Sequence record: OR544955
Length of the DNA: 64,000 bases
Direction: 5' to 3' (one strand)
Source: Escherichia phage vB_EcoP_EP32B
Part shown: in pieces, positions 7,135-24,256 of the stretch
Layout: each line of letters starts with the position of its first letter
Position numbering within the stretch: position 1 is the stretch's first letter
Notes under the pieces: model-generated
The model's input: only the letters and a program-made list of their open reading frames with translations
What the model was told of the DNA's origin: nothing
Database searches by the model: none
Made by a program: the position numbers and the translations under genes

Positions 7135-7236
7135 TTCTATTCTCTTCCGTTCGTCTGATATTCTGTTGAACCGGATTAATGGAAGAGACCTAAAACCATT
7201 ATACTGTATTTTTATTAAAGCGTTTTTGAGGTGCTT

Positions 7237-7821
7237 ATGACTCGTCCAGCGAGACAGATTTTTAACCAAACAAATATAACAAACTTTGTTGTGGATATCC
7301 CAGATAGTACACGAACTTCGGGTTTTGTGCTCAATGCCCAAACGGCTCCATTGCCAGGTGTGAGAATTCCTGTTGTTGAAACCGTGACAGGCACAATGGG
7401 GTTAGGACGTGCAATGCGTGCAGGCACCACATTTGAATATGACCCTTTTATTGTACGATTTATAGTTGATGAAGACATGACGTCCTGGATGAACATGTAT
7501 AAATGGATGCTCAGCACTAATAACTATATAACCGGACATAATACGGCACACTCTGATGGTCCTGAGTTTGTTACTTTGCACATTTTAAACAACAATAAGA
7601 CCGAAGTAGTTTTGACGGCAAATTTCTATAAACCGTGGATTTCCGATCTGAGCGAAATTGAATTTAGTTACACTGAAGACTCTGACCCTGCCGTTACGTG
7701 CGTAGCAACTATTCACTACGCGTATATGACGATAGAAAAAGATGGCGAAGTCATTGTATCTCAACAACCACGTCAATCGGTCGAATCTAAATCCATTTCT
7801 AGACACCCTTCCTTGCGTTAA
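7237..7821 (+). CDS. 3: tail completion / sheath stabilizer protein gp3 (by synteny)
   Basis: 194 aa from MTRPARQIF; sits between 2 and 1 as in T4. Confidence 0.55.
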   Translation: MTRPARQIFNQTNITNFVVDIPDSTRTSGFVLNAQTAPLPGVRIPVVETVTGTMGLGRAMRAGTTFEYDPFIVRFIVDEDMTSWMNMYKWMLSTNNYITGHNTAHSDGPEFVTLHILNNNKTEVVLTANFYKPWISDLSEIEFSYTEDSDPAVTCVATIHYAYMTIEKDGEVIVSQQPRQSVESKSISRHPSLR

Positions 7822-7875
7822 TCGCTTCTAGCTCCGTATGTTATAATCACTCATAAATTATATGAGGAAAAACCT

Positions 7876-8610
7876 ATGGAGCTAATCTTTTTAAGTGGCA
7901 TCAAACGTAGCGGTAAAGACACTACTGCTGATTACATCAATTCAAACTTTAAATCCGTAAAATACCAATTGGCATATCCGATTAAAGACGCTCTAGCAAT
8001 AGCCTGGGGACGTAAACATGCTGAAAATCCTAATGTATTCACAGAGTTGAAATACGAATACTTTGAAGGCATTGGATACGACCGTGAAACACCATTAAAT
8101 CTCAATAAGTTGGATGTTATTGAATTATTGGAAGAAGCGCTAATTTATTTGCAAAGCCAATATTTACCAATTAATAATGTTAAAGTATTATCATCGTTAG
8201 AAGGTGGATATTCATATCTAGATATTAAACCGTATGAAGCCCTGCGTGAAGCTATAAATAATATCAACGACACATGGTCAATCCGCCGTCTTATGCAAGC
8301 CCTCGGTACGGATGTTGTCGTTAATTTATTTGACCGTATGTATTGGGTTAAACTTTTTGCATTAAACTATATGGATTATATTGGAAGTGATTTCGATTAC
8401 TATGTCGTAACCGATACACGCCAAGTCCATGAAATGGAAACCGCTAGAGCGATGGGTGCTACAGTTATTCATGTGGTTCGCTCTGGTACGGAATCCACCG
8501 ATAAACATATTACAGAAGCTGGGTTGCCTATTGAAGAAGGCGATTTAGTTATTACAAACGACGGCTCTTTAGAAGAGCTTTATTCTAAAATTGAAACAAT
8601 CTTAAGGTAA
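7876..8610 (+). CDS. 1: deoxynucleoside monophosphate kinase gp1
   Basis: 244 aa; MELIFLSGIKRSGKDTTADYI P-loop; C-terminal region matches recalled T4 gp1 closely. Confidence 0.9.
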   Translation: MELIFLSGIKRSGKDTTADYINSNFKSVKYQLAYPIKDALAIAWGRKHAENPNVFTELKYEYFEGIGYDRETPLNLNKLDVIELLEEALIYLQSQYLPINNVKVLSSLEGGYSYLDIKPYEALREAINNINDTWSIRRLMQALGTDVVVNLFDRMYWVKLFALNYMDYIGSDFDYYVVTDTRQVHEMETARAMGATVIHVVRSGTESTDKHITEAGLPIEEGDLVITNDGSLEELYSKIETILR

Positions 8611-8614
8611 TAAA

Positions 8615-9300
<686 letters not shown>

Positions 9301-9301
9301 T

Positions 9302-9360
9302 TTTCACAAAACAGTTTACATAAGGATGATGGTGTGATACTATCATCCTATCAAATAAAC
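9302..9360 (+). promoter_or_regulatory. early promoter in inverted repeat (PeSL-like)
   Basis: TTTTCACAAAACAGTTTAC upstream element and -35 GTTTAC at 9314-9319; inverted repeat GGATGATGG...CTATCATCC spanning a -10-like GATACT. Confidence 0.45.
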
Positions 9361-9440
9361 AACCTCAAGGAAATAAAATGAAAACATATCAAGAATTTAT
9401 ATATGTTATAGTAGTCCTATCAAAACAAGAGGATAATAAA

Positions 9441-9626
9441 ATGAAACGCGCTGAACTGATTCGTAATGTTGCTGTAGTAATTGCTTCAATGGCTTTTAGT
9501 TTTTCGATGTTTGTAGGATTCATTTGTGGACTACTGACAACAACTGAAAACTCTATCTCATTGGTAGTAGCATTTCTAATCGGCTTAATCGCTATCGTTA
9601 TGGATAAAATTGCAAAAGGTGAGTAA
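9441..9626 (+). CDS. small hydrophobic membrane protein (61 aa)
   Basis: track ORF 9378..9626 begins MKTYQEFI (internal-protein targeting-sequence-like) but a PeSL-like fragment lies inside; likely start MKRAELIR after GAGGA. Confidence 0.4.
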   Translation: MKRAELIRNVAVVIASMAFSFSMFVGFICGLLTTTENSISLVVAFLIGLIAIVMDKIAKGE

Positions 9627-9989
9627 ATGAAATATCATGTATATGCAGATTTTGAAGCAAATCCTTCTAAAGACCATGATTGTCGTTTGATACGCAGACC
9701 ATTTGATTCAGCAGCTCAAGCCTGGGCTTGGATTAAATCTAAATCGCCTGGTTATATGTTCTTTGAAGTAGTCGATGACAATGGTACACTGCATCCGGCC
9801 CCTACAGAAACTATTAATTTCCTTCTGTTTGCTGGTTATGACTGTTATCCTCTTGGTGGTATTGACGACCTTGTTGCTACAGGAAAAACTGTTGAGGCTC
9901 TTCGCGAAATTTATAAAAACGCAGAAGAAAATTTTGACTGGTATCATATTGTTGATGCTCATACCTTTGAAATAGTGGAACATTCATGA
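9627..9989 (+). CDS. hypothetical protein (120 aa)
   Basis: ORF abutting upstream gene, compact T4-style packing. Confidence 0.6.
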   Translation: MKYHVYADFEANPSKDHDCRLIRRPFDSAAQAWAWIKSKSPGYMFFEVVDDNGTLHPAPTETINFLLFAGYDCYPLGGIDDLVATGKTVEALREIYKNAEENFDWYHIVDAHTFEIVEHS

Positions 9990-10276
9990 TTCTTTATGCT
10001 AAGGTAAAATCCGTTGAGAATGGATATGAAAGCGACCGGGGTGCAGCTAAAGCACTAGTCGATGACTACGGTATTCTGACTAACTTTGAGGTTGAAAAGG
10101 TTTATATCGACCGTTCATCTTCACAGGTTAAATTACTCTGTGAAGACAATAAATTTAACACAGTTAATTTTGATTTCTTTATTGAAACTGAATCAGGTCC
10201 TCTTGAATATGATATTTTCAAGAATCCTTTGAAATTACGTTGCATTGAATATAATTACATTAATATGGTACGGTGA
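9986..10276 (+). CDS. hypothetical protein (96 aa)
   Basis: ATGA overlap with upstream ORF. Confidence 0.55.
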   Translation: MILYAKVKSVENGYESDRGAAKALVDDYGILTNFEVEKVYIDRSSSQVKLLCEDNKFNTVNFDFFIETESGPLEYDIFKNPLKLRCIEYNYINMVR

Positions 10277-10280
10277 GTAA

Positions 10281-10772
10281 ATGAATATTTGTTTAGGCAG
10301 TACAATTCCTAAGGGTTACGTAATTGATGTCACTACTTGGGAAAATGACGGTGACAACTATAAAACCAAAACATTATTTGGTGTAGAAGAGCATGAGCTC
10401 CAACAGTTTAAATATCTCTTGAAGAAATTTAAGAGTCGTCATTCTAGTACTAAAGCTGAACGTTACTGTGGTAATACACTATTCAGTGATTGCTCGCTTT
10501 TAATCTATGAATACTTGGTTGAAGGACTGTTCTCAGACCAGCTTTATCCAGAATTCATTAAAAAGGTCTTTGATATTGAAGTCGACCTTGGTAATAAATC
10601 TGAAGAAGACGAATCACGTGTATTTGACCTGTTCCAAGGTCTCATTGATATTCTTGGCCATGCTTCTGAATATTATGACTATGATTTCTTGCGTGTAGTT
10701 GAACGTGTTGAATTCGCTTATATTGAAGAAGAAATTGTTTTGCCGACTGTTAAAATGATTGATTTGCTTTAA
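10281..10772 (+). CDS. hypothetical protein (163 aa)
   Basis: ORF with upstream GTGAGTAA-ATG context. Confidence 0.6.
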   Translation: MNICLGSTIPKGYVIDVTTWENDGDNYKTKTLFGVEEHELQQFKYLLKKFKSRHSSTKAERYCGNTLFSDCSLLIYEYLVEGLFSDQLYPEFIKKVFDIEVDLGNKSEEDESRVFDLFQGLIDILGHASEYYDYDFLRVVERVEFAYIEEEIVLPTVKMIDLL

Positions 10773-11029
10773 GAATTATGTGTTATTATTAATTCATACC
10801 CTCTATTACCAAAGGTGCTCTAAAGTGCCTTTCATAATAGAAAGTTATTTAGGCCCTGTAGCTCAATGGTGCAGTAGCTGCTCTGGAAAACCTGTTCCAA
10901 ATTGCAACAGAAGAACGCGAAGAAGTTACATTATGGATTGAAGATAACGCAGGTCTGAATCTCCAGGACGCGATCTCATTATCCCACAATAGTATCACTG
11001 TTCAAGGCTGGGTATCATCTAGTTATTCT

Positions 11030-11080
11030 TGCTAAAACAGTTTACAACAAGATAGGGCTATGTTATAGTAGTCCTATCAA
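11030..11080 (+). promoter_or_regulatory. early promoter in inverted repeat (PeSL-like)
   Basis: AAAACAGTTTAC -35, inverted repeat GATAGG...CCTATC around TGTTATAGT, then AAATGGAG Shine-Dalgarno. Confidence 0.45.
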
Positions 11081-11097
11081 AACAAATGGAGTCCACA

Positions 11098-11337
11098 ATG
11101 ATTTATTACGAAAGTATCGGAACCAAAGTGGTTGGTAAAACCATTACTCGTGAAAAGTTTGCAAAGATATTCGATATGCGTTATAAAAAATCTGAACACA
11201 AAGGCATCCGATTCGAAGATGCGCACTGTACAATTTGCCCTTATAATGAAGACATAAACGGTACAATCGTTCCATTGGTAGAGGCTTCACATGATGACCT
11301 CTGGGATGAATATAATATCGCATGTCGTGAAATTTAA
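11098..11337 (+). CDS. hypothetical protein (79 aa)
   Basis: ORF 11086..11337, start taken at MIYYES after GGAG. Confidence 0.5.
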   Translation: MIYYESIGTKVVGKTITREKFAKIFDMRYKKSEHKGIRFEDAHCTICPYNEDINGTIVPLVEASHDDLWDEYNIACREI

Positions 11338-11365
11338 GTTAATGAATTAATCCGAGGAAAATATT

Positions 11366-12322
11366 ATGATGTTAGTTATTGGTTCTCGTGCACTTCACTA
11401 TCACGGTCTTATTGATTCTAGCGCTATTAAAAATAGTGATTGGGACTTTATTGCGGACCAAGGTTCTTGGAATGCATTCAAAAATCAAATGATGGGTGTA
11501 TATGTTCACCAAGATAACCCTGATGTCCAAGTTTTCAAATGCTTCCATAATGGACGCGAAACTCATTTTGAAGCATATATTGTTCCGGCAATCACTAGTG
11601 TCCGTGAATTAGTCGGTGAACTCACTCCTGAAGATTTCACGTCTTCTTATGACCTTTTAAAATACGCCAAGAAAAATTTGACTAAAGACCGTTTGAACGG
11701 GTTTTACTGGGCAACTCCTGAGATATGTCTTGCAATTAAGATGTCTCATCGTTTCAAGAAAAATAATCCATTCTTTTTAAAGACTATGAACCATATTCAG
11801 TATCTTCGTGGTAAAGGTGTTAAACTGAACGATGAACTTACTGAAATTATGCTGAAACGCCAGAAAGAAACCTTGAACTATGCTCACCCTGTTCTTGACA
11901 CTTCTAAAAGTGCGTTCTTTAAAGATGACATCTATACATATGACCATGATACTATTCACGAAGCTATTGCACTAACAGACCGTCCGGCTTATACATTTTA
12001 CATGAAAGATGGTTCTGAAGTCATGACCTCACGCGAGAAGTTTGAATCACTTCCGGAAATGGTCAAATTGGCCGGTGTATATGAAGAAACATGTGTACTA
12101 GCGTTAGAACGTTCTCAGATTCCTAATGGCTTTGAAATCCATCCTCGTGATAGTTTTATGATGGCATTAGAAAAGGTCTGTACTTCAATCACATCAGGCT
12201 GGTTCCGTGAGTTCGCTTGGGAAAATTATAGCAAAGTAGTAAGTATGTACCAAAGCTTAGGACACGACGATTACGTCAAGCGTTTCAAACAAAACTTTCA
12301 TATGGTAAAACCTTTCAAATAA
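11366..12322 (+). CDS. hypothetical protein with possible Pol-beta-type nucleotidyltransferase N-terminal motif
   Basis: 318 aa; LVIGSRALHYHGLIDSSAIKNSDWDFIAD resembles the GS...DxD nucleotidyltransferase signature. Confidence 0.6.
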   Translation: MMLVIGSRALHYHGLIDSSAIKNSDWDFIADQGSWNAFKNQMMGVYVHQDNPDVQVFKCFHNGRETHFEAYIVPAITSVRELVGELTPEDFTSSYDLLKYAKKNLTKDRLNGFYWATPEICLAIKMSHRFKKNNPFFLKTMNHIQYLRGKGVKLNDELTEIMLKRQKETLNYAHPVLDTSKSAFFKDDIYTYDHDTIHEAIALTDRPAYTFYMKDGSEVMTSREKFESLPEMVKLAGVYEETCVLALERSQIPNGFEIHPRDSFMMALEKVCTSITSGWFREFAWENYSKVVSMYQSLGHDDYVKRFKQNFHMVKPFK

Positions 12323-12372
12323 TTTCACAAAACAGTTTACAAGGTCTGTAGTTGTTGATACTATAGACCTAT
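12323..12372 (+). promoter_or_regulatory. early promoter in inverted repeat (PeSL-like)
   Basis: TTTCACAAAACAGTTTAC, inverted repeat AGGTCTGTAG...CTATAGACCT spanning GATACTATAG. Confidence 0.45.
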
Positions 12373-12402
12373 CAAAACAAATGAGTGAATGGAGATATCA
12401 AA

Positions 12403-12603
12403 ATGACTACTTTGAATAAACGTTTCGGTAAAGCTAAACCTGGTTGTGCAGCAGAACGTCGTTATGTTTTCGCTCAGTTAGAAGATGTAGAGTATCAGAT
12501 TAATCAAGTTCACATTACTGGTATCGAGCCTATGTGTGGCCTTGAAGCTCTTCGTGAAGTTCGTGATGGGTATCGTCGTGACATCGAAGAAATGTCAAAA
12601 TAA
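12403..12603 (+). CDS. hypothetical protein (66 aa)
   Basis: ORF 12385..12603, start at MTTLNKRFG. Confidence 0.5.
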   Translation: MTTLNKRFGKAKPGCAAERRYVFAQLEDVEYQINQVHITGIEPMCGLEALREVRDGYRRDIEEMSK

Positions 12604-12650
12604 GTGTACAAACTGATAGGACTATGTTATAGTAGTAGTCCTATTAAAAC
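12604..12650 (+). promoter_or_regulatory. early promoter in inverted repeat (PeSL-like)
   Basis: GTGTAC -35 variant, inverted repeat ATAGGACTATGTTATAGTAGTAGTCCTAT, then GAGGAG. Confidence 0.4.
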
Positions 12651-12664
12651 ATGAGGAGAATATT

Positions 12665-12970
12665 ATGAAATTAACAGAAACCAATCGAATTGGTCTTTTA
12701 ACAATACTTGCATCACCTTTTTACGCAACTCTTTCTGTTGCAGTATTACAAAAGGCTTACGATATGGATGGTGTTCCTGGTTTTGTATTCTTATCGCCGT
12801 TTTTGCTATTCGTTGGAGCATTGTTATTATATGCCACGACTGGTTTCGACCATAATGTCTGGGTCAATTATAAACGTAAATTGTCCGAAGAAGAACACGC
12901 AGAAGCTCGTAAAAAAGCTATTGAATCTACCAATCTAGAAAATTTCATTAAAGAATGTCGAGGAAAATAA
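12665..12970 (+). CDS. membrane protein (101 aa, two hydrophobic segments)
   Basis: hydrophobic stretches ILASPFYATLSVAVL and FVFLSPFLLFVGALLLY. Confidence 0.6.
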   Translation: MKLTETNRIGLLTILASPFYATLSVAVLQKAYDMDGVPGFVFLSPFLLFVGALLLYATTGFDHNVWVNYKRKLSEEEHAEARKKAIESTNLENFIKECRGK

Positions 12971-12971
12971 T

Positions 12972-13566
12972 ATGAATAGTTCTAAAGTGTTTAATAGTCA
13001 AGCTCGTGCAGTAGGTGGTTTTGCTCATGCGATTAAAAATGACCAGATTAAAAACGAGCCTATGTTCTTTTGTATTTGATTCACGAGTCCACATGCTGAT
13101 GCCTGGTTGGTATCCTGCTATCCCAGGTTATCACCATGATGACGTACCACGCCCGGATATTCCGGTTGGTCAACATTTTATTACTGCAGGACAACCTGAC
13201 TATGACAATCCTCGCTATTTGTCTGAACATATTCTTGGTCTTGTTAACGCTGATGTGTGTCCTACTCATTTTGCAACAGGAACTGCGGAGTTCAGTCAGA
13301 TTCCTGATGGCGAACTTATCTATCGCCAGTGGCACAAAGAAGTCCTCGAAAAAATCGAAAAAGGCGAACTAGAGAAATGGGAAGCTCCAGACCGTACTCT
13401 TCTTCAGTTTGATTGGCAAACATGGCACACTGGTTCTCGTGCAATTAGTAATGGATGGCGTTGGTTCGGACGTGTATCTCGTAATACAGACCGAGTTAAA
13501 AAGATTACCAATGAAATTCGCGTCAATGCCCAAGTTTATCTGGAATTCCCTATGGAAGGCTGGTAA
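12972..13566 (+). pseudogene. hypothetical gene apparently split by a frameshift
   Basis: ATG 12972 with GAGGAAAA Shine-Dalgarno opens a 34-codon ORF that stops about 13076; the 183-codon ORF 13015..13566 continues in the +1 frame across A5 runs. Confidence 0.4.
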
Positions 13567-13925
13567 TGATTAACAAAACATATTGGTCTAATATTGACGA
13601 CGGCAATGAAGGTATTTCGTACTATTCAGTGGATTGGACAGGATGTCCATCCTACTTAGTGAAACGTATTTGCCAAGAATTTAAAATCGACAAACCAGCA
13701 GGTATTATCGTGAACAGATACATTAATGGATATCAACCTATCGATGAAGTAATACGAACAACTCAAGCTGATCTTGAAAAGTTTTTCAATAAGTGCCAAT
13801 GGATAACAGGATGGATTATATTTGTACCGTCGGTATGGTTTTTTAGTACTAAGGTGAGTTCTTTCGGTTTTGTTGATATTATTGCTATCTTATTAGCATC
13901 TGCTATCATAAGTCATCATTATTAA
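13566..13925 (+). CDS. hypothetical protein with C-terminal transmembrane segment (119 aa)
   Basis: ATGA overlap with upstream ORF; hydrophobic C-terminus. Confidence 0.55.
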   Translation: MINKTYWSNIDDGNEGISYYSVDWTGCPSYLVKRICQEFKIDKPAGIIVNRYINGYQPIDEVIRTTQADLEKFFNKCQWITGWIIFVPSVWFFSTKVSSFGFVDIIAILLASAIISHHY

Positions 13926-14018
13926 TCTTGTTAAAAGTAGTTTACAGGAACGTAAAGACAAGATAAAGGCCAAGAATAACGAAGTTGAACGTTTTATTAC
14001 TGAATGCAGGAATTTGAG

Positions 14019-14255
14019 ATGAGTATAGCAATTTACATTAAATCAGAATCATGTGATAGTTATCTGTACACATACGATAAAGATGTGTCAGAAGAAAAAA
14101 TCAAAGACGACCTTAATACGGATCTTGATATGTTCTGTCCTATTGCAGATTACAAACTTGCGGTCTCTAATAGTGAAAGTCCATCTAAAGAAACGCGCAT
14201 TGAAGAATTTATGTCCGAATTAATGGCCAAATCATGGGACCGAGATGATGAGTAA
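14019..14255 (+). CDS. hypothetical acidic protein (78 aa)
   Basis: ORF 14004..14255; start MSIAIY preceded by AGGAA. Confidence 0.5.
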   Translation: MSIAIYIKSESCDSYLYTYDKDVSEEKIKDDLNTDLDMFCPIADYKLAVSNSESPSKETRIEEFMSELMAKSWDRDDE

Positions 14256-14703
14256 GAAAAATAAAGTGAAAGAACTATCAGCCGGTATTATTTTCCTTAC
14301 CGAAGATAAAGAATTATTCATGGGGCGTGTAACTGGTTCTCGTCCTAAAGGTTCTTTAGCTCATCGCTGGGATATTCCTAAAGGACGTGTCGAGCCCGGT
14401 GAATCTCCTATTGAAGCCGCTATTCGCGAATGCGAAGAAGAAACTGGGTTTACACAATATGACCCTGCCTTCCTGAAAGACCTAGGTGAACATCATTACT
14501 CAGACAATAAGAATATTCATCTGTTCCTATATACCATCCCTGTAGAGCACGAGCAATTCAGAAACAGTGCTTGTAATTCCTATCATACATTCCCAGACGG
14601 ACGACAGATTCCTGAATTTGATGCGTTCGCTTTAATTAAACCTTCTCAATGGGAATATGTGATGGGCAAATCATTATATAAGGTGCTCACTACTATCCTA
14701 TAA
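14245..14703 (+). CDS. nudE: Nudix hydrolase (NudE / e.1-like)
   Basis: Nudix box GRVEPGESPIEAAIRECEEETG; located just upstream of gene e as in T4. Confidence 0.85.
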   Translation: MMSKKNKVKELSAGIIFLTEDKELFMGRVTGSRPKGSLAHRWDIPKGRVEPGESPIEAAIRECEEETGFTQYDPAFLKDLGEHHYSDNKNIHLFLYTIPVEHEQFRNSACNSYHTFPDGRQIPEFDAFALIKPSQWEYVMGKSLYKVLTTIL

Positions 14704-14737
14704 GTAATAAATATCTCCTATAAACGTGGGAGGTATT

Positions 14738-15226
14738 ATGAATATATTTGAAATGCTTCGTAATGACGAAGGTCTTAGACTGACTTTATACAAAGACACT
14801 GAAGGCTTTTGGACGATTGGCATAGGCCACTTGGTAACAAAGAACCCGTCTTTAGCCGTAGCTAAAGCTGAACTTGACAGAATGATCGGTCGTAAATGCA
14901 ACGGTACAATTACCCTTGATGAGGCTGAAAAGCTATTTAATGAAGACGTCGATAAAGCCGTTCGCGGAATCTTGGGTAATGCTAAACTTAAACCGGTATA
15001 TGATTCTTTAGATGCAGTTCGTCGATGTGCATTGGTCAATATGGTCTTCCAAATGGGTGTAGCAGGCGTTGCTGGTTTTACTAATTCTCTTCGTATGCTT
15101 CAACAGAAGCGTTGGGATGAAGCGGCAGTAAATCTAGCCCAATCTAAATGGTACCGTCAGACACCTAATCGAGCGAAACGCGTAATCTCAACATTTAAAA
15201 CAGGAACTTGGAAAGCGTATATATGA
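14738..15226 (+). CDS. e: lysozyme (endolysin), gene e
   Basis: 162 aa [32 protein letters not shown]; about 80% identical to T4 lysozyme as recalled. Confidence 0.95.
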
Positions 15227-15504
15227 AAACATATAGTGAATTTTTATCAGAATCTATTCTTAACGAAGCTACTGACACATTTGCAACTAAGCTAGGTGCA
15301 GCTTTGGTTGAAGCTGAAAGTCTATTAGCACGTATTTCTGAACTTGCCAGTAAGATAGATACTCGCAAATTTGAGCGCACCAGTGATATCGTTAAGCTTG
15401 AAGCCTTGTTACGTATGTGCGATAAACCGGAAGAAATCGCTAAGAACGGCTCGCTGATGAAACAACGTCTTGAAAAATATATTTCAGGCGCTTCAGAAAA
15501 ATAG
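15223..15504 (+). CDS. internal protein (IP-like) with capsid targeting sequence
   Basis: begins [10 protein letters not shown], resembling the T4 IP targeting sequence MKTYQEFIAE with an LxE protease site; located between e and denV. Confidence 0.6.
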
Positions 15505-15505
15505 T

Positions 15506-15558
15506 GTTTACTTCCTCCAAGGACTTTGATACTATACATTCATCAACTACTTGGAGGA
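15506..15558 (+). promoter_or_regulatory. early promoter in inverted repeat (PeSL-like) upstream of denV
   Basis: GTTTAC -35, inverted repeat TCCTCCAAG...CTTGGAGGA whose 3-prime arm contains the Shine-Dalgarno sequence. Confidence 0.5.
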
Positions 15559-15562
15559 AATT

Positions 15563-15976
15563 ATGACTCGTATCAATTTAACACTTGTTTCTGAACTGAC
15601 TGACCAACATCTTATGGCTGAGTATCGTGAATTACCACGCGTATTTGGTGCAGTCCGTAAACATGTTCAAAACGGTAAACGTGTAAAGGATTTTAAAATC
15701 TCTCCAACATTTATCTTAGGCACAGGTCACGTAACATTCTTTTACGACAAACTTGAATTTTTACGTTTACGACAAATCGAGCTAATCGCCGAATGCTTGA
15801 AACGTGGTTTCAAAATCAAGGACACGACTGTCCAGGATATTTCCGACATCCCTGCAGAATTTCGTAATAATTATGTCCCATCCGAAGCGTCCATTGCGAT
15901 AAGTCAAGCACGCTTAGATGAAAAAATTGCTCAACGTCCGACTTGGTACAAATACTATGGTAAATCAATTTACTAA
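15563..15976 (+). CDS. denV: endonuclease V (pyrimidine dimer DNA glycosylase), denV
   Basis: [35 protein letters not shown], near identical to T4 endo V as recalled. Confidence 0.95.
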
Positions 15977-16068
15977 GGAACAAAATGAAAACTCCAACCT
16001 GTAATAATGTCGAGCCCAAGTGCGGTAATGGGTTGCCACGGAATGGCCCAACATAAAAGAGAAACTAA

Positions 16069-16590
16069 ATGAGAACATTTTTAACTGGACCTTATCTATC
16101 CCTGATGAATGCTTTTACACACCATTCTGATGCTAGAGTAGAAGAAATTTGTAAGAACGGTTATGTCCCACCATTTGAAGACGTACTCAAGCAGTACTGT
16201 ACACTTCGTTTAGACGGTGGCAGACAATCCGGTAAATCAATTGCTGTGACTAACTTTGCTGCTAATTGGCTGTATGATGGCGGAACAGTTATTGTTCTTT
16301 CTAATACTTCAGCTTATGCTAAAATTTCTGCTGGTAACATTGAAAAAGAATTTTCTCGATATTCTAGCGATGATATTCGATTCCGTTTATTTACTGATTC
16401 TGTTCGTAGTTTTATTGGCAATGAAGGTTCTAAATTCCGTGGATTAACGCTTTCTCGTATTCTGTATATAATTGACGAGCCTATTAAAGCTCCTGATATG
16501 GATAAGATTTACAATGTCCATATTAAAACAGTTACTGTTGCAAAAGCAAATATTGCATCGGCGGTAATGCTCGTCCTCAATTTTTTGTGA
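16069..16590 (+). CDS. small P-loop NTPase-like protein (173 aa)
   Basis: Walker A GGRQSGKS and Walker B-like LYIIDEP. Confidence 0.6.
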   Translation: MRTFLTGPYLSLMNAFTHHSDARVEEICKNGYVPPFEDVLKQYCTLRLDGGRQSGKSIAVTNFAANWLYDGGTVIVLSNTSAYAKISAGNIEKEFSRYSSDDIRFRLFTDSVRSFIGNEGSKFRGLTLSRILYIIDEPIKAPDMDKIYNVHIKTVTVAKANIASAVMLVLNFL

Positions 16591-16600
16591 TTGGAATGCA

Positions 16601-16909
16601 ATGATGACCACTATTGAAGTTTTTGAATATTGTTATAACAGTCCAGTATGCAATAAAAGGGCCCTTGTAGAAAATTACGAGATTTACCATTTTAAACCTA
16701 AACGATATCGTTTGACTAAAGGTCCGTTCGCAGGGCAGCAGGTTCTTTGTACTGCTCCTAATGCACGACTGATGACTAGTATTCCACATTTCAAAATGGA
16801 ATTTATTGATGGGCCATTTAAGGGATTAACCACTCAAAGTTTAATGGCGTTTAGTTCTGACCCATTTTTGATTAAAGAAAAAACTTGGATAAATTTATTT
16901 TCTAATTGA
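16601..16909 (+). CDS. hypothetical protein (102 aa)
   Basis: ORF following upstream gene. Confidence 0.5.
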   Translation: MMTTIEVFEYCYNSPVCNKRALVENYEIYHFKPKRYRLTKGPFAGQQVLCTAPNARLMTSIPHFKMEFIDGPFKGLTTQSLMAFSSDPFLIKEKTWINLFSN

Positions 16910-16915
16910 GGTTAT

Positions 16916-17278
16916 ATGAAAGCATATCAAATTCTTGAAGGTGCACATAAAGGCACTATTTATTTTGAAGACGGTACTCAAGCCCGGATTATTGTCTCTA
17001 AGACTTTTAAAGAAGACGCTATTGTAGACCCGGAAATTTTCTACGGTTTGAATGCCCGTGAAATTGAAATTGAACATCAACCTAAAGTTAAAATTGAAGG
17101 TGGTCAACACCTGAACGTTAACGTTCTGCGTCGCGAAACTCTGGAAGATGCAGTTAAGCATCCAGAAAAATATCCGCAGCTGACCATCCGTGTATCCGGT
17201 TATGCAGTTCGCTTTAACTCTCTAACTCCGGAACAGCAGCGCGACGTTATCGCTCGTACCTTTACTGAGAGTCTATAA
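16916..17278 (+). CDS. autonomous glycyl radical cofactor (GrcA/YfiD-like, T4 Y06I-like)
   Basis: C-terminal 60 residues [61 protein letters not shown] contain the RVSGY glycyl radical motif and match E. coli GrcA as recalled; local GC visibly higher. Confidence 0.85.
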
Positions 17279-17502
17279 TGGCTAAATTGATTATAGAAGG
17301 GTCTGAAGATGTTTTAAAATGTTTTGCCGCCTGGTTTAGTTGCTCAGGCGAGCAATCATTCATTGAAGCATTTAGAATGGGTGATATTACTGGAAACTAT
17401 CCGACAACTGATATCACTGTACGTGGATATGGTATTAATGAGCCTATCCAATTGGTCGAATATGACCTTGCCACCGATGAGGAAATTCCTTATGTCGATT
17501 GA
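17278..17502 (+). CDS. hypothetical protein (74 aa)
   Basis: ATAATG overlap with GrcA stop. Confidence 0.5.
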
Positions 17503-17890
17503 AGACATCAAAGGCTATAAGCCGCATACCGACGATAAAATCGGTAAAGTGAACGCTATTAAAGATGCAGAAGTTCGAGGAAAAATACTAATGGCTCAAA
17601 TCCTATCAGGCTTTGGAACTCATTATGAAGCATCTAGACGCATAACTGAAAGCAATCCTTTTGGCCTTGTTCCGAAGCACAAGAAAATTCAAAGCCTTGA
17701 TGACTTTGAGAACCGCCTATGGGCCCTCTTTAATGAGTACAAGGCATATCTGAAAGAAGACGCTGACGATTGTCTTGAAGAAGATGAGATTGCGTATTAC
17801 GAACAACGCCTTGAACAGCTCAAGAACTTCCATCAGGTTCGTGACGAAGTATCTAAAGCAGTTAAAAAGTTAATTCCTTTCAAAGAGTAG
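17492..17890 (+). CDS. hypothetical protein (132 aa)
   Basis: start at [12 protein letters not shown] overlapping upstream stop (ATGTCGATTGA); frame of track ORF 17324..17890. Confidence 0.5.
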
Positions 17891-17939
17891 TTTACTTCTC
17901 CTCTAGTTGTGTTACTATAGACATGTCAACTAGAGGAGA
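17890..17939 (+). promoter_or_regulatory. early promoter in inverted repeat (PeSL-like) upstream of regB
   Basis: GTTTAC, arms TCTCCTCTAGTTG / CAACTAGAGGAGA flanking GTTACTATAG. Confidence 0.5.
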
Positions 17940-17946
17940 AATCAAA

Positions 17947-18405
17947 ATGACTATCAATTCAGACGTTTTTATCCGCCGTAATAAACTCCGTCGAATCTTT
18001 GAAACGGAGTTCCGCAAAATAAATGCCGGTATAAAAGATGCTGCAAAGTCTCTTGGACTACCAGGCTTTCATATCAAGTATTCTCAACATCTCTTAGATC
18101 GTGCCATCCAGAGAGAAATAGATGAGAATTACGTTTTTGAATTATTTCATAAAGTAAAAAATCATGTTAAAGAAGTTGCAGAATTTTTATCAATGCCGGC
18201 ACGTCCAGATGTTGATGAAGATTTTGTCGAAGGTGTCGAGTATCGTCCAGGCCGTTTAGAAATAACTGATGGAAATCTTTGGTTAGGACTTACAGTCTGT
18301 CGCGAAAATCCAGCATTCAAAATGAAGACTCTTCAATGCAGAATGGCTATTATTAACAGTAAACGACTACCAGGAAAAGCTTCTAAAGCAGTGATTAAAA
18401 TCTAG
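17947..18405 (+). CDS. regB: endoribonuclease RegB
   Basis: MTINSDVFIRRNKLRRIFETEF...NSKRLPGKASKAVIKI, matches recalled T4 RegB. Confidence 0.9.
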   Translation: MTINSDVFIRRNKLRRIFETEFRKINAGIKDAAKSLGLPGFHIKYSQHLLDRAIQREIDENYVFELFHKVKNHVKEVAEFLSMPARPDVDEDFVEGVEYRPGRLEITDGNLWLGLTVCRENPAFKMKTLQCRMAIINSKRLPGKASKAVIKI

Positions 18406-18413
18406 AGGTAAAC

Positions 18414-18956
18414 ATGAGAAAAGCACTACTCGCTGGTCTATTTGCTCTTTCATTATCAGCACATAGCTCCGAGCATACTTTTAGTAATGTCCAACTCGAT
18501 AACTTGAATTATGCTTATCAGTTTGGGGAACAGTTTTCTAAGGACGGAAAATTTAAAACGCATGAAAATATGCATAAGAAAGGACTTGGATACATAATGG
18601 CCGCAATACTATGGCAGGAATCATCTGCCGGTATTAATCTTAAAGATAAGAAAGGTCACCATGCGTATGGAATGTTCCAAAATTATCTACCAACAATGAG
18701 GGTAAGAATTAACCAGCTTGGTTATAATATGACTGATGCCCAAATTAAGAAAATGCTATCTAAGCGGTCTAATTCAGCCAGATGGGCTTATATCGAATTT
18801 TCTTATTGGTTAAATATACATAACGGGGATATAAGAAAAGCTATATCCTCATATAATGCGGGATGGAAGACAAGTGCTGGAAGTAAATATGCTTCTGAAG
18901 TCCTAGAAAAGGCTAATTACCTTAAATCAAATAAACTACTGGAAATAAAAGAATGA
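18414..18956 (+). CDS. secreted lytic transglycosylase-like protein
   Basis: signal peptide MRKALLAGLFALSLSAHS; SLT-like motifs WQESSAG, GMFQ, SYNAGW. Confidence 0.6.
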   Translation: MRKALLAGLFALSLSAHSSEHTFSNVQLDNLNYAYQFGEQFSKDGKFKTHENMHKKGLGYIMAAILWQESSAGINLKDKKGHHAYGMFQNYLPTMRVRINQLGYNMTDAQIKKMLSKRSNSARWAYIEFSYWLNIHNGDIRKAISSYNAGWKTSAGSKYASEVLEKANYLKSNKLLEIKE

Positions 18957-19300
18957 CCAAAATGTTGGCTTTAATAGTTGGCTTGGTTTCATTTAGCGCT
19001 CTTGCTAATACTACATATACTGATGTAACGGAGTATACAAACAGAACGGCGTCTGATTATTGTGGTAAAAGTCAAGAGTGTAAAGTAGATTTTTCACAAA
19101 AATTGTTATATGCGTATAAAGACGGAGAAAAAGATGGGGCGTCTAGTAGGTTCAAGGCGTCTACCTTAATTAAAAGATACTATAAAAAATGGCAAATATT
19201 AGAATGCTCGGTGGCGGAACCTAAAGATAAGGCAGCATGCAATTCTATGGTGGACCGTCTAGTTGACTCTTATAATAGAGGACTTGCAGCAAGTGATTAA
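18953..19300 (+). CDS. secreted Cys-containing protein (115 aa)
   Basis: signal peptide MTKMLALIVGLVSFSALA. Confidence 0.55.
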   Translation: MTKMLALIVGLVSFSALANTTYTDVTEYTNRTASDYCGKSQECKVDFSQKLLYAYKDGEKDGASSRFKASTLIKRYYKKWQILECSVAEPKDKAACNSMVDRLVDSYNRGLAASD

Positions 19301-19760
19301 AAACTATATCAAGGGCGATATTGTCGCCCTGTTTTCTAAAGGTAATAATATTGCTCATGGGTGTAATTGTTTTCATACAATGGGCGCTGGTGTGGCAGGA
19401 CAATTAGCAAAGGCTTATCCAAAAATTTTAGAAGCCGATAAACTTCAAACCGAATTCGGAGACGAGTCTAAACTCGGGACTTATTCGGTTTATGAAAAAT
19501 ATTTTAAGACCCATAAAGCTTATTGCTTTAATCTTTATACACAGTTTGAGCCTGGACCTAATTTTGAGTACTATGCTTTAATGAATTGTATAATAGAATT
19601 AAATGAATTCGGAAAGAATAAGATAACAAAGCCTGTAATTTATATGCCAAGAATTGGTGCAGGTATCGGTGGCGGAAACTGGGATGTCATCGAAGAGATT
19701 TTAGACACATATTCCACTAAACTAGAAATTGTGATTGTTGATTGGGAACCATTATTATGA
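19293..19760 (+). CDS. macro domain protein (ADP-ribose binding/processing)
   Basis: NCFHTMGAGVAGQLAKAY and PRIGAGIGGGNWD resemble the two glycine-rich macro-domain motifs; start uncertain (GTG 19293 or TTG 19263). Confidence 0.6.
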   Translation: MIKNYIKGDIVALFSKGNNIAHGCNCFHTMGAGVAGQLAKAYPKILEADKLQTEFGDESKLGTYSVYEKYFKTHKAYCFNLYTQFEPGPNFEYYALMNCIIELNEFGKNKITKPVIYMPRIGAGIGGGNWDVIEEILDTYSTKLEIVIVDWEPLL

Positions 19761-19969
19761 ATATACATTATCCACATCCATATGACCCAAAGAATAAGGC
19801 AGTAATTATTCGTCAATGGGAACGCATTTGCCGTACTAAATGCCCAATTAATAGTCCACATGATGTAGATAAAGACTATATTGGAACATTCGTTGAATAT
19901 ACCTTTATTGATAAGAAAGGTCGTAAACAACATGTAGAAGAATATTGCTTAAAGGTTACATGGTTATGA
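19757..19969 (+). CDS. hypothetical protein (70 aa)
   Basis: ORF 19742..19969, start at MNIHYPHPYD. Confidence 0.45.
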   Translation: MNIHYPHPYDPKNKAVIIRQWERICRTKCPINSPHDVDKDYIGTFVEYTFIDKKGRKQHVEEYCLKVTWL

Positions 19970-20496
19970 GTCTTACTGCCGCCCATAACTATAAAGAACG
20001 TGGCATGGGTGTATTAGTTCTTAAACCGGCTATTGATACTCGCGATTCAAAAGGTGAAATAGTCTCTCGTATTGGTATTCGTCAGGACGCCAATATAATT
20101 ACAAAAGACATGGATATCTTTGAATTCTATAAATGGGCTGCAGCACAAAAGGATATTCATTGTGTATTTGTTGACGAAGCTCAGTTCTTAACTACTGAAA
20201 AGGTGTATCAACTTAGTCGTATTGTTGACGTATACAATGTGCCGGTAATGGCATATGGACTACGAACAGATTTTAAAGGTAATCTATTTGAAGGTTCTCA
20301 AGCATTAATGGCTATTGCCGATAAGCTTGTTGAACTTAAAGGTGTCTGTCATTGCGGTAAAAAGGCCACAATGGTAGCTAGAGTCACGGAAGACGGACTT
20401 CCAATTACAGATGGCAGTCAAATTGAAATTGGTGATACTGATAGATATGTGTCATTATGCCGGAAGCATTGGAATGATTTGACAGGGTTGTTATAA
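19960..20496 (+). CDS. tk: thymidine kinase homolog lacking the N-terminal P-loop (probable remnant)
   Basis: MVMSLTAAHNYKERGMGVLVLKPAIDTRD... aligns with TK1-family Tk from just after the GKS Walker A; in-frame stop 19924-19926 upstream. Confidence 0.7.
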   Translation: MVMSLTAAHNYKERGMGVLVLKPAIDTRDSKGEIVSRIGIRQDANIITKDMDIFEFYKWAAAQKDIHCVFVDEAQFLTTEKVYQLSRIVDVYNVPVMAYGLRTDFKGNLFEGSQALMAIADKLVELKGVCHCGKKATMVARVTEDGLPITDGSQIEIGDTDRYVSLCRKHWNDLTGLL

Positions 20497-20523
20497 ATAC
20501 TAATATCTAACCAAGAGGTATAT

Positions 20524-20736
20524 ATGCAGCAATTAAACGAAAGACAACTTCGTAATCTTACTGTAACCCAATTGGATGAAATCCGAAGAGAATTAGGACA
20601 TTCTATTTCTCATTTAAACGAGGATATCCGTCAAACTGGTTCTAAAGCTGATTATACACGCAAGCGCAAGCTGGAAAAATACCTCACAGATGTTAAGGCC
20701 GTCCAAAGGCGAAAAATAAATACTGGCCAAAATTAA
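20524..20736 (+). CDS. hypothetical basic protein (70 aa)
   Basis: ORF with Shine-Dalgarno GAGG. Confidence 0.5.
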
Positions 20737-20748
20737 CAGGAGGCCTAT

Positions 20749-21051
20749 ATGGCCTTAAGAGCGATAGCTGTCATGGCGATGCTGGGGTTTTTTGCAGCAA
20801 CAACTCCTATCGTTGGTACTGCATATACCGACCCATATTTTGACAACTTTATGGAATCAGGGATTAAAAACGTATATACTTTGTTTGAAATTCAAAATGT
20901 CGAGAATTCTGAAAAATTCTATAAGTATATGGCAAAGCATTACAAAAATAGCCCCTGTGATGATGCATTTGAATGTCATGAACAAGGCATAAAAACTGCC
21001 AGACAATTTGCCGAGTTCATGAAAATAAAATTAGAGCCTACATCTATCTAA
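20749..21051 (+). CDS. rI: lysis inhibition regulator rI
   Basis: MALRAIAVMAMLGFFAATTPIVGTAYTDPYFDNFMESGI...KIKLE matches recalled T4 RI; N-terminal signal-anchor. Confidence 0.85.
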   Translation: MALRAIAVMAMLGFFAATTPIVGTAYTDPYFDNFMESGIKNVYTLFEIQNVENSEKFYKYMAKHYKNSPCDDAFECHEQGIKTARQFAEFMKIKLEPTSI

Positions 21052-21058
21052 TTTACTA

Positions 21059-21085
21059 GCCCCTTCCTTACGGTTGGGGCTTTTT
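21059..21085 (+). terminator. rho-independent terminator after rI
   Basis: GCCCC-TTCCTTACGGTT-GGGGC stem-loop followed by TTTTT. Confidence 0.6.
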
Positions 21086-21096
21086 GGCATCTATCA

Positions 21097-21146
21097 GTTT
21101 ACTTCTCCTCAGGTTGTGTTATAGTAGACCTTACTTACTAGAGGAG
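21097..21146 (+). promoter_or_regulatory. early promoter in inverted repeat (PeSL-like)
   Basis: GTTTAC, arms CTCCTC / GAGGAG around GTTATAGTAG. Confidence 0.45.
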
Positions 21147-21152
21147 AACGTT

Positions 21153-21332
21153 ATGTCACGTAAAGAAAAAATTTCTAAGTTGATGTTTTTGATTGAAGAG
21201 TATGCTAATGCGGTGTCTGATTGGGAAAATGCTCATGGGTGCGAAGATGGAGACATCGACATTAACAGAGCTATGAAAAAGATGGCTGATACTCACACCG
21301 AATTGCAAATGTATGTTAACGAGATTATGTGA
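21153..21332 (+). CDS. hypothetical protein (59 aa)
   Basis: ORF 21084..21332, start MSRKEKISKL after the promoter hairpin. Confidence 0.5.
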   Translation: MSRKEKISKLMFLIEEYANAVSDWENAHGCEDGDIDINRAMKKMADTHTELQMYVNEIM

Positions 21333-21339
21333 GGACATT

Positions 21340-21546
21340 ATGCTTTACGATTATACTGGAAAATCTGAAGACGGTGTACTTGAACTTTTACCTGAAAGCG
21401 CTGAAGACGATGATATGGTGGTGATGTTTTGTAAAAATGGCCCTGGGGATAAGGGATGGATTTATCTTCGCCAAGAAAATGACTTAATTGTTTTGGACCC
21501 TAAACAAGTTGAAGAACTTTATCAACATTTAAAACACAATCGGTAG
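21340..21546 (+). CDS. hypothetical acidic protein (68 aa)
   Basis: ATG preceded by GAGGAC. Confidence 0.5.
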   Translation: MLYDYTGKSEDGVLELLPESAEDDDMVVMFCKNGPGDKGWIYLRQENDLIVLDPKQVEELYQHLKHNR

Positions 21547-21590
21547 TTTACGTCTTGGTAGGACTATGATATAGTAATCCTACCAAAACA
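21546..21590 (+). promoter_or_regulatory. early promoter in inverted repeat (PeSL-like)
   Basis: GTTTAC, inverted repeat TTGGTAGGA...TCCTACCAA around TGATATAGT, then AAATGGAG. Confidence 0.45.
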
Positions 21591-21603
21591 AATGGAGAAC
21601 AAA

Positions 21604-21714
21604 ATGAAACTTTTGCTTATCGCTTATGTTGTAGTACAATACAATTATCCGATGTTTACTTATAACATGGTAAACGGCATAGTGAATCTTATTGAAACGA
21701 GTATGGTAAAATGA
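21604..21714 (+). CDS. small hydrophobic peptide (36 aa)
   Basis: ATG right after the PeSL with GGAGA Shine-Dalgarno; below track length cutoff. Confidence 0.35.
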   Translation: MKLLLIAYVVVQYNYPMFTYNMVNGIVNLIETSMVK

Positions 21715-21891
21715 CCCGTGAACAAGCTAATAAATTGATGGACCTTATCCGTGACTTACGTGAAGCCGATTCAGATTTGAGTGATGTAGCTTATCATGCG
21801 GTAAATGATAACGGAGACTTTTATGAAAATCAGGTTGATGCTTGCCAGAATGCTTTGGTGAATTTTGTTGAAACTTTAATTGGTGAATAAT
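21712..21891 (+). CDS. hypothetical protein (59 aa)
   Basis: MTREQANKLMDLIRDLREADSDL...; ATGA overlap with previous small ORF. Confidence 0.4.
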
Positions 21892-22422
21892 ATGAAAACT
21901 GTAATTGAAACAACCGAGTTGTTTGGTGATTTATGTATCGAAAAACGTGGTTATGTGTATGTTCTGACACAAGAAGATGATGCTGCTACTATTCTTCCTA
22001 TGGAACTGGACAAGATTTTGAAACTCAATCCGCCAGGCCATGCATCTGTAATTAACATCGATGAAGACCTTCAAGTTCGTTTTTATCACGGTCTTTATAG
22101 TGGGGTTAATATCGAAACTGAAGACGAATGTTTTTCTATCAATAATTGGAAAACATTCGTCACTAAGGTGAAAGAATTAATGGAATCTGAAACAGCCAAA
22201 AAGGCCAAACTTCAATGGGCTAAATGCCGTAATGCTTTTATTACAAATCAGGACCGCCCTGACTATACAACGGTCCTAGGCGTTAATCCTTCTTATGAAG
22301 ATGGTGATGTCGTAGTTATTCGTCAAATTGATGACCTTCGTCAACATATCGTTACATTAGACAAAGATGAAGCAGTTGCTCTTAAAGCTTATCTTGATTC
22401 TATTATACCGACTTTGAAATAA
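21892..22422 (+). CDS. hypothetical protein (176 aa)
   Basis: ORF 21880..22422, start MKTVIETTELFG. Confidence 0.6.
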   Translation: MKTVIETTELFGDLCIEKRGYVYVLTQEDDAATILPMELDKILKLNPPGHASVINIDEDLQVRFYHGLYSGVNIETEDECFSINNWKTFVTKVKELMESETAKKAKLQWAKCRNAFITNQDRPDYTTVLGVNPSYEDGDVVVIRQIDDLRQHIVTLDKDEAVALKAYLDSIIPTLK

Positions 22423-22431
22423 GGAATTATT

Positions 22432-22905
22432 ATGATTATCAATGAAAACTCTTGGCACTTTAAAATTTATGCCGCGTTTAATAGTACATGGAATCGCCCG
22501 AAAACGTTGTGTGCTTATTTTTGGAAAACGTTAATCCCGGTATTGGCTGTTTCAATTATTGGATTTGCGATTTTAGCAGCAGTCGTAATCATTGGCCAGG
22601 AAATTTTAACTAAATTCTTTGTTTTTAGTAGTCTATGGACATTAGTTCCGGCCTCAATTGGCGTAGGCATTTTAATGGTAGCAGTCATGGCTTTTATTGC
22701 TACCGGGTTGGTAATTGGTCCGTCTTGGTTGTTAGACAAATATAACGACAGAAAATATTATAAAGAAATCGAGCTCATTGCACAAAACCAAGAACGAATT
22801 AAAAATGGACTTGAACCTATTGAACGTAAGAAATCATTAATAGGTGAATACCTTAAAGCTCGTAAAGAAAAAATCTGTCCTACTCTTGAATATAAGGCTA
22901 AATGA
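22432..22905 (+). CDS. membrane protein (157 aa)
   Basis: three hydrophobic segments followed by a basic C-terminal tail. Confidence 0.6.
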   Translation: MIINENSWHFKIYAAFNSTWNRPKTLCAYFWKTLIPVLAVSIIGFAILAAVVIIGQEILTKFFVFSSLWTLVPASIGVGILMVAVMAFIATGLVIGPSWLLDKYNDRKYYKEIELIAQNQERIKNGLEPIERKKSLIGEYLKARKEKICPTLEYKAK

Positions 22906-23891
22906 TGAAAACAATTATGAAAGGCTACTTTGGTAGCCACCTTTATGGAACGTCTACTCCTGAATCTGACGTCGATTTTAAAGAAATTTATGTCCCTCAT
23001 GCTCGTGATATCTTGACCGGTAACGTTAAAGAACACATGAGCAAGAACACGAATAACACATCTTCTAAGAACACAAAAGACGACGTGGACCATGAGTTGT
23101 ATAGTCTCAAATATTTCTTTAAACTAGCTGCGGATGGTGAAACCGTCGCATTAGATATGCTTCACACTCCACCAAGTTTAGTAGTTAAATCTGATTTGCC
23201 TGATGTATGGAAGTATATTCAAGATAACAGGTCTCGTTTCTATACCACTAACATGAAATCTTATTTAGGGTATGTCCGTAAGCAAGCTTCTAAATATGGT
23301 GTCAAGGGTTCTCGACTGGCTGTTCTTCGTCAAGCCCTTAAACGTTCTAATGAATGGGGACAATACTTTGATAATGGTGCAGTAATTCGTTTATCACATA
23401 TGAAGAATGTTCTGCCTGTAGGTGAATTTGCTTCGTGGGTTGAAACTGAAAACGAGAAAACAGGTAAGCAAACATTCTATAATCTGTTAGACCGTAAATT
23501 CCAAGACACATTAACTAATAAAGAGTTCAATGCCATCCTGGTTAAACTGGAAGAGAACTATGGTGAACGTGCTCGTAAGGCAGAAGCTAACGAAGGTATT
23601 GACTGGAAAGCATTGAGTCATGCATGTCGTGGTGGACTTCAATTATTAGAAATTTACAAAACAGGCGATCTGGTTTACCCACTTCAGGATGCTCCATTTA
23701 TTCTCGATGTTAAGCTTGGTAAACATACGTTTAAAACTGTACAAGAATTCCTAGAAGATATCGTTGACCAAGTTGAACATGCGTCAGAACAAGCTGCCAA
23801 GAACGGTATGCAACAAAAAGTAGATATGAGTTTCTGGGATGACTTCCTTGAACAAGTCTATCTCGAAAATCATAATTCTTACTATAAATAA
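22902..23891 (+). CDS. putative Pol-beta-type nucleotidyltransferase-fold protein
   Basis: N-terminus MKGYFGSHLYGTSTPESDVDFKEIYV fits the GS-x(n)-DxD minimal nucleotidyltransferase signature; 329 aa. Confidence 0.6.
   Translation: MMKTIMKGYFGSHLYGTSTPESDVDFKEIYVPHARDILTGNVKEHMSKNTNNTSSKNTKDDVDHELYSLKYFFKLAADGETVALDMLHTPPSLVVKSDLPDVWKYIQDNRSRFYTTNMKSYLGYVRKQASKYGVKGSRLAVLRQALKRSNEWGQYFDNGAVIRLSHMKNVLPVGEFASWVETENEKTGKQTFYNLLDRKFQDTLTNKEFNAILVKLEENYGERARKAEANEGIDWKALSHACRGGLQLLEIYKTGDLVYPLQDAPFILDVKLGKHTFKTVQEFLEDIVDQVEHASEQAAKNGMQQKVDMSFWDDFLEQVYLENHNSYYK
23884..23891 (+). promoter_or_regulatory. late promoter TATAAATA
   Basis: exact TATAAATA about 32 bp before ATG 23923. Confidence 0.4.
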
Positions 23892-23922
23892 GTAGATAAA
23901 TAACCATTAACTTGAGGTAAAT

Positions 23923-24204: not shown

Positions 24205-24207
24205 ATG

Positions 24208-24232
24208 TGGGGACCTTCGGGTCCCTTTAGGG
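24208..24232 (+). terminator. UUCG-tetraloop hairpin terminator
   Basis: GGGGACC-TTCG-GGTCCC followed by TTT. Confidence 0.55.
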
Positions 24233-24256
24233 GGTCAAAATATTTTTAAAAAGTAG

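Follow-up and report, generated by a model that had tools for sequence, protein, structure and literature searches.

We analysed a 64,000-nt stretch of Escherichia phage vB_EcoP_EP32B (record OR544955, one strand; hereafter the window), in which a small open reading frame (ORF) lies between the lysozyme gene e and the pyrimidine-dimer glycosylase gene denV (Table 1). The ORF list and the sequence agree on an ATG at 15223-15225 and a TAG stop at 15502-15504, giving a protein of 93 aa; the start codon overlaps the TGA of e (ATGA, 15223-15226), an arrangement shared with RB69, Escherichia coli O157 typing phage 3 (O157tp3) and VR20, and the upstream neighbour of e is a Nudix gene (nudE). The e-ORF-denV segment is 98% identical to O157tp3 and many other Mosigvirus genomes, and we assign the window phage on sequence to Mosigvirus (RB69-like T-even phages). 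Internal protein (ip) loci were defined as either 57B-trna.4 or the e-denV-vs.8 region. Since the e-denV interval of T4 carries ipIII and ipII, the ORF sits in an ip locus, in the very place that the original prediction gave it; the coordinates, the Pfam matches of both flanking genes and the T4 locus all agree. An antisense ORF (15195-15539, 114 aa) was considered as coding and rejected: the substitution pattern fits the + frame, which is also the frame found in all annotations.

Table 1. Features at and around the ip5-like gene (window coordinates).
Feature	Position	Strand	Remarks
Late-promoter box matches	14699..14713	+	Just upstream of e; two overlapping 7/8 matches (TATAAGTA, AATAAATA) to the T4 late-promoter box TATAAATA; scan with at most 1 mismatch
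Lysozyme gene e	14738..15226	+	Upstream flank; Pfam PF00959 (Phage_lysozyme), E=7.5e-14
ip5-like internal head protein gene	15223..15504	+	93 codons + TAG; orthologue of RB69ORF127c; ORF list, sequence, PHROG 3499
Capsid-targeting sequence (CTS), codons 1-10	15223..15252	+	Ends in the first L/I-x-E prohead-protease site, LSE|S
Linker SILNE, codons 11-15	15253..15267	+	Second protease site LNE|A; predicted disordered
Predicted mature protein, A16-K93	15268..15501	+	78 aa, 8.6 kDa, pI about 8.1, net charge +1; predicted three-helix domain
3' boundary hairpin	15503..15568	+	Perfect 10-bp arms 15512-15521 / 15549-15558; inverted-repeat search and RNA fold
denV (pyrimidine-dimer glycosylase)	15563..15976	+	Downstream flank of the ip locus; Pfam PF03013 (Pyr_excise), E=3.3e-14

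The ATGA overlap implies that e and the ip5-like gene are co-transcribed and translationally coupled. The paired late-box matches are a possible, if weak, candidate for a late transcription start serving both genes, and a pattern scan found no exact T4 late promoter (TATAAATA) near the ip5-like gene. An early-type promoter, GTTTAC-N17-TACTAT, lies within the hairpin at the 3' boundary (arms TTCCTCCAAG and CTTGGAGGAA; RNA fold -18.5 kcal/mol, z=-2.6). Read-through transcripts would have the denV Shine-Dalgarno paired in this hairpin, whereas transcripts initiated inside it would leave the site free. The hairpin resembles the promoter/stem-loop (PeSL) cassettes found at module boundaries of T4-like genomes. 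The remnant of an ip gene at the ipI locus (described below) also has a similar promoter within a hairpin upstream of it, at about 9316-9360.

The Ip5 internal head protein family was reportedly named by Repoila et al. in 1994. The ip5-like protein matches PHROG 3499 ('internal head protein') with E=1.2e-46 over the full protein and 1.2e-37 over residues 16-93, that is, with the propeptide removed, and T2 Ip5 matches the same PHROG (E=1.8e-47). Similarity to named Ip5 proteins thus extends over the full length and is independent of the CTS: identity to the annotated Ip5 of T2, RB51 and RB70 is 47-52% over 90% of the length, a profile search recovers the Ip5 of T2 and RB70, and an exhaustive HMMER search recovers T2 Ip5 at 2.9e-11. 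There is also a weak match to PHROG 2667 (E=0.011), and Pfam and NCBIfam returned no match. The RB51 record carries the remark 'similar to Ip5 from T6, T2, RB15 and RB70 and RB69ORF127c', and the identical amino-acid sequence is present on 541 public contigs and named 'internal head protein' in RefSeq and UniRef. By sequence, we identify the ORF as an Ip5-family internal head protein and the orthologue of RB69ORF127c. It had been put forward as a candidate T4-type internal protein, a call that is borne out by its CTS, its ip locus and its homology to the Ip5 of T2, T6, RB51 and RB70, and under which it is already annotated.

A tblastn search located the protein in 496 of 50,697 phage records (509 places; 13 records hold two copies), and these fall into two main groups. 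The first, at 95% identity or more, comprises at least 232 Mosigvirus records, in which the gene always adjoins e. T2, RB51 and JK08, where it bears the annotation 'Ip5 internal head protein', are among about 258 others, at 46-51% identity, in which it occupies the ipI locus adjoining 57B. The Gaprivervirus VR20 has a copy 89% identical at the e-denV locus, annotated ip5, and two divergent metagenomic members lie just downstream of 57A and 57B/Acb1, one of these contigs having an intervening 69-aa ORF. The family therefore occupies two ip loci according to genus, the 57B-adjoining one in Tequatrovirus and in some T4-like phages from metagenomes, and the e-denV one in Mosigvirus and Gaprivervirus; this distribution, together with the double copies, is consistent with movement of cassettes between loci that share CTS codons. 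In sequence searches the family is confined to T-even-type phages: 5.8 billion proteins yield only 13 clusters of it (90% identity), and since the exhaustive HMMER search over 1.84 billion representatives (50% identity) gave only four related clusters, there is no wider family to lend it a function.

Internal proteins are packed by virtue of a CTS, cut by the gp21 protease and injected with the phage DNA. The first ten residues of the ip5-like protein are identical to the T4 IPII/IPIII sequence MKTYQEFIAE at 6/10 positions and similar at 9/10, with aromatics at positions 4 and 7 (Y4, F7). Amber-suppressor work on T4 IPIII assigned targeting mainly to residues 4 and 7 and processing to residues 8 and 10, and the protease gp21 cleaves after L/I-x-E (PMC9026906); Y4, F7, L8 and E10 of the ip5-like protein satisfy all four of these determinant positions. 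A scan of all six frames (2621 Met codons) for the pattern MKT[YF]x[ED]F[LI]xE gave one occurrence in the window, at the ip5-like ORF, against a chance expectation of 2.8e-5 and no occurrence in 200 shuffles. The match to the T4 targeting-sequence consensus noted at the outset therefore stands, with the four determinant positions present and a chance expectation this low.

The propeptide contains two protease sites, LSE|S (residues 8-10) and LNE|A (residues 13-15), either of which would close a propeptide of 10-19 residues, and both fall in the stretch that joins a short CTS helix to the body of the protein in the structural model, the only one with pLDDT <50 (residues 12-16). No family member lacks an L/I-x-E site within residues 8-15. 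In the homologues of RB69, VR20, T2, RB51, ADUt and TH22, an I/L-x-E stands at the position of the second site, directly before the conserved mature N-terminus; TH22 lacks residues 8-12, and its ITE abuts the conserved SSHGMEV. Position 10 is V in VR20 and K in T2, which leaves both with the site at 13-15 alone, and the divergent members P0010, P0011 and P0014 keep only a site at 8-11. Because E15 is the only site in the RB69-, VR20- and T2-type homologues, the mature protein more probably starts at A16 (78 aa) than at S11. The original prediction had named one L-x-E site and a mature form of 83 aa; its arithmetic is right for a cut after E10, which would give a product of 83 aa and 9.2 kDa from S11, but it overlooked the second site, LNE|A, after E15. 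The revised N-terminus is relevant to anyone who wishes to express the active form. A gp21-type protease and a gp22/67/68 core could be assessed by proxy, via the closest genome: O157tp3 (98% identical at the locus) encodes a Peptidase_S77 prohead protease (E=2.9e-107) amid scaffold genes, and we infer the protease of the window phage from its relatives because its gene falls outside the window.

The RB69 orthologue, RB69ORF127c (NP_861817, 'internal head protein'), has the same locus and the same overlap with e and is 100% identical from residue 13 on; over residues 5-12 it reads MNFYQNLS where the window protein reads SEFLSESI. Alignment of RB69 NC_004928 3169-3204 (minus strand) with window positions 15223-15262 revealed two compensating frameshifts (-1/+1), one nucleotide being deleted and one inserted at a distance of 25 nt, through which the RB69 allele loses the E10 site; Y4, F7 and LNE|A survive. 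Either the propeptide tolerates this change or the 2003 reference sequence is in error here.

Internal proteins had been described in the original prediction as hypervariable, and this does not hold for the ip5-like gene, which is carried by so many genomes at high identity (see above) and has a low dN/dS within its lineage. The ratio is 0.05-0.13 against close relatives, 0.00-0.05 against other Mosigviruses and 0.12 against VR20 (dN 0.068, dS 0.56); across the Tequatrovirus split it rises to about 0.3, where dS is saturated. The variable part is which ip genes occupy the ip loci, not the Ip5-like gene within the lineage. Such strong purifying selection, combined with near-universal presence in the lineage, is not what would be expected of a fast arms race.

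The Ip5 proteins of T2, T6, RB51, RB70 and RB15 (80-95 aa) resemble the window protein over the whole length, match the same PHROG and carry the same type of CTS; the T2-type proteins also share its mature boundary (I/L-x-E, then A/S) and the blocks KLGxALxEAE and EIAKNG. The differences are of place and composition: the Tequatrovirus copies lie at the ipI locus beside 57B, whereas the window copy lies between e and denV; the Mosigvirus type has a C-terminus eight residues longer and a two-residue insertion; and T2 Ip5 is basic (pI 9.2), whereas the Mosigvirus type is near neutral.

The relation to the internal proteins of T4 is of another kind. By BLASTP and hhalign, only residues 2-11 (the CTS) of the ip5-like protein align with T4 IPI, IPII or IPIII, just as the mature part had been said not to resemble them, and these three belong to PHROGs 4363, 7857 and 5341, respectively, all other than 3499. 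Distant homology to, or membership in, any of the three T4 families was thus rejected. T4 IPI* (Ip1), the functional paradigm of the class, is CTS-carried, injected and of similar size (76 aa mature), and its 19-residue propeptide, cut at ITE|A, is arranged like that of the ip5-like protein; however, it has a mixed alpha/beta fold, whereas the ip5-like protein is predicted to be all-helical, and there is no similarity beyond the CTS. T4 IPII and IPIII share the e-denV position and have a CTS cut after residue 10, but their mature parts are unrelated; both are much more basic (+5 for IPII* and +10 for IPIII* vs. a net charge of 0 to +1 and pI 6.3-8.1 for the mature ip5-like protein), and IPIII is twice as long.

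An AlphaFold model built on a 12-sequence alignment (mean pLDDT 74, pTM 0.55) contains helices at residues 20-44, 54-65 and 69-92 and predicts a small three-helix domain. Two conserved blocks map onto it, K23-L-G-x-A-L-x-E-A-E32 in helix 1 and E71-I-A-K-N-G76 at the opening of helix 3. Foldseek searches with the model returned only a family member in BFVD (the putative internal head protein of VR26) and nothing below E=3 in the PDB, and a PDB sequence-profile search gave weak matches only, to designed helical bundles; the predicted fold offers no functional lead.

Remnants of other ip genes are present on both sides of the locus. At 9378-9401 (context 9300-9626), right after 57B/Acb1 (the ipI locus), stand eight CTS codons (MKTYQEFI) that have their own ribosome-binding site but no protease site; their frame continues into the leader of a small membrane gene resembling trna.4, and the true start of that gene is probably at 9442. 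Compared with O157tp3, the window has a 613-bp deletion here, which takes out IPI (a GmrSD inhibitor) together with a second ip gene and has its breakpoint within the CTS codons. Another ip gene has left a stub, ATGAAAAC, at 15986-15993; the stub follows denV immediately and gives way to unrelated sequence (context to 16034). O157tp3 has, from the same base, a 109-aa CTS-bearing ORF (MKTYQEFITEVTLS...), of which region 390 bp, and another 28 bp, are missing from the window; in LF82-1 and RB69 the post-denV site holds two or three ORFs, which in LF82-1 include a T4 IPII homologue. Because these other ip genes survive only as CTS stubs, no ip gene but the Ip5-like one is intact in the ip loci of the window; and because two such stubs occur in the window, a CTS-like start alone is no proof of an ip gene.

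The reality of the gene, the purifying selection on it, its family membership, its motif content and its locus are established in the present analysis, and on this basis we propose how the protein may work. The ip5-like gene would be transcribed and translated with lysozyme e late in infection; its CTS, to judge from T4 IPIII genetics, would bind the scaffolding core and bring the protein into the prohead. There, a gp21-type prohead protease would remove the propeptide at LSE|S and/or LNE|A, as conservation in the family suggests, leaving a 78-aa helical protein of about 8.6 kDa from A16 that would reside among the packaged DNA and be injected with it. In the host, it would most likely block a first-response defence, by analogy with the action of T4 Ip1, Ip2 and Ip3 on GmrSD-type enzymes. 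We consider this proposal as a whole, that of an Ip5-family internal head protein orthologous to RB69ORF127c and acting through this sequence of steps, to be probable. That the protein is packaged and processed is, from its sequence features, very probable; that its role is to inhibit a type IV restriction enzyme is plausible by analogy, and we hold this part tentatively, at slightly less than an even call.

Packaging has one competing account, in which the MKTY... start is a recombination linker derived from neighbouring ip cassettes and the protein stays, unpackaged, in the cytoplasm where it is made. CTS-coding stubs devoid of ip genes do occur twice in the window (9378-9401 and 15986-15993), but they contain no L/I-x-E site at all and lead into unrelated sequence; the ip5-like protein has a full CTS with both protease sites intact, at least one site is kept in every homologue, and even the RB69 allele, frameshifted over residues 5-12, still keeps Y4, F7 and LNE|A. 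We regard an unpackaged protein as very improbable. A packaged protein might instead have a mainly structural or physical role inside the head, for example in DNA condensation, packaging or ejection, and not act as an anti-defence effector. The conservation of the gene under purifying selection is like that of structural genes, and lysines of T4 internal proteins touch DNA phosphates in the head (PMC3012670); however, the mature ip5-like protein, being near neutral (0 to +1, pI 6.3-8.1, vs. +5 and +10 for T4 IPII* and IPIII*), is a poor fit for charge neutralisation, internal-protein genes are described as non-essential (PMC12373910), and the family is absent from many T-even phages and present in only 496 of the 50,697 phage records. 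A mainly structural role thus appears improbable.

The identity of the target is less easily settled. T4 Ip1 inhibits the GmrSD type IV restriction enzyme of strain CT596, and Silas et al. 2025 found a separate GmrSD target for each of T4 Ip1, Ip2 and Ip3, and the proteins did not cross-protect; IPII and IPIII (Ip2, Ip3) act on the GmrSD of ECOR21 and ECOR17 (PMC12373910). IPIII is needed on ECOR17 and acts from the cytoplasm even when its CTS is removed (PMC9391042). When ip4-10 were assayed against eight active GmrSD variants, no reproducible inhibition was seen (Silas et al., PMC12373910), and T2 and T6 carry Ip5 yet are restricted by the GmrSD of ECOR21, ECOR17 and CT596 (PMC12373910); RB69, a bearer of the orthologue, is still restricted by the GmrSD of UTI89. 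Mosigviruses such as RB69 have arabinosyl-hmC instead of glucosyl-hmC, and the enzyme relevant to Mosigvirus Ip5 may therefore differ. Our literature searches found nothing on Ip5 function and retrieved nothing on virion proteomics or N-terminal sequences of the Mosigvirus homologues.

We reasoned that the protein could also be packaged and injected but directed at something other than a GmrSD-type enzyme, either another early defence or a conserved host factor. The published screens, which gave no GmrSD target for ip4-10, and the continued restriction of Ip5-bearing phages by four characterised GmrSD variants both point this way, as do the dN/dS of 0.05-0.13, the 232 or more genomes at 95% identity or above, and the retention of this one intact gene in ip loci from which IPI and others were lost; such a target would explain the strong conservation in Mosigvirus and Gaprivervirus. 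On the other hand, every T4 internal protein whose function is known, three in all, inhibits a GmrSD-family enzyme, few variants of this highly diverse family have been assayed, and the Mosigvirus-type allele (about 48% identical to T2 Ip5) is absent from the published tests that we found. We judge a non-GmrSD target to be unlikely on balance, if well short of negligible. The preferred reading thus remains that of an injected protein that blocks a first-response defence, and its high conservation and near-neutral charge may leave room for a target outside GmrSD.

A more specific version, which we consider possible but rather doubtful, is that Mosigvirus-type Ip5 is the conserved injected inhibitor by which this lineage counters another defence, acting through a three-helix fold that has no known structural relative; candidate targets could be a type IV enzyme by which arabinosyl-hmC DNA is recognised, or a first-response system other than GmrSD. 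If true, it would explain why one ip gene was kept while IPI and other ip cassettes were deleted. The 2025 demonstration paired T4 Ip1-3 with GmrSD variants, and Ip5 is a T-even internal protein outside that set. Because the allele is unusually conserved in the arabinosyl-hmC Mosigviruses and has no other intact ip gene beside it in the ip loci of the window, it offers a clean single-gene handle on a new pair of defence and inhibitor.

Window positions 5000-25000, around the locus, are 97.8% identical to about 26.8 kb of O157tp3, in 11 pieces, and because 20 kb maps in this way onto the longer stretch, several deletions must have affected the accessory region of the window phage. O157tp3 and RB69 have tRNA-Met and tRNA-Arg genes between the ipI and e regions, and no tRNA gene was found in the whole window; the accessory region of this phage seems to have been pared down.
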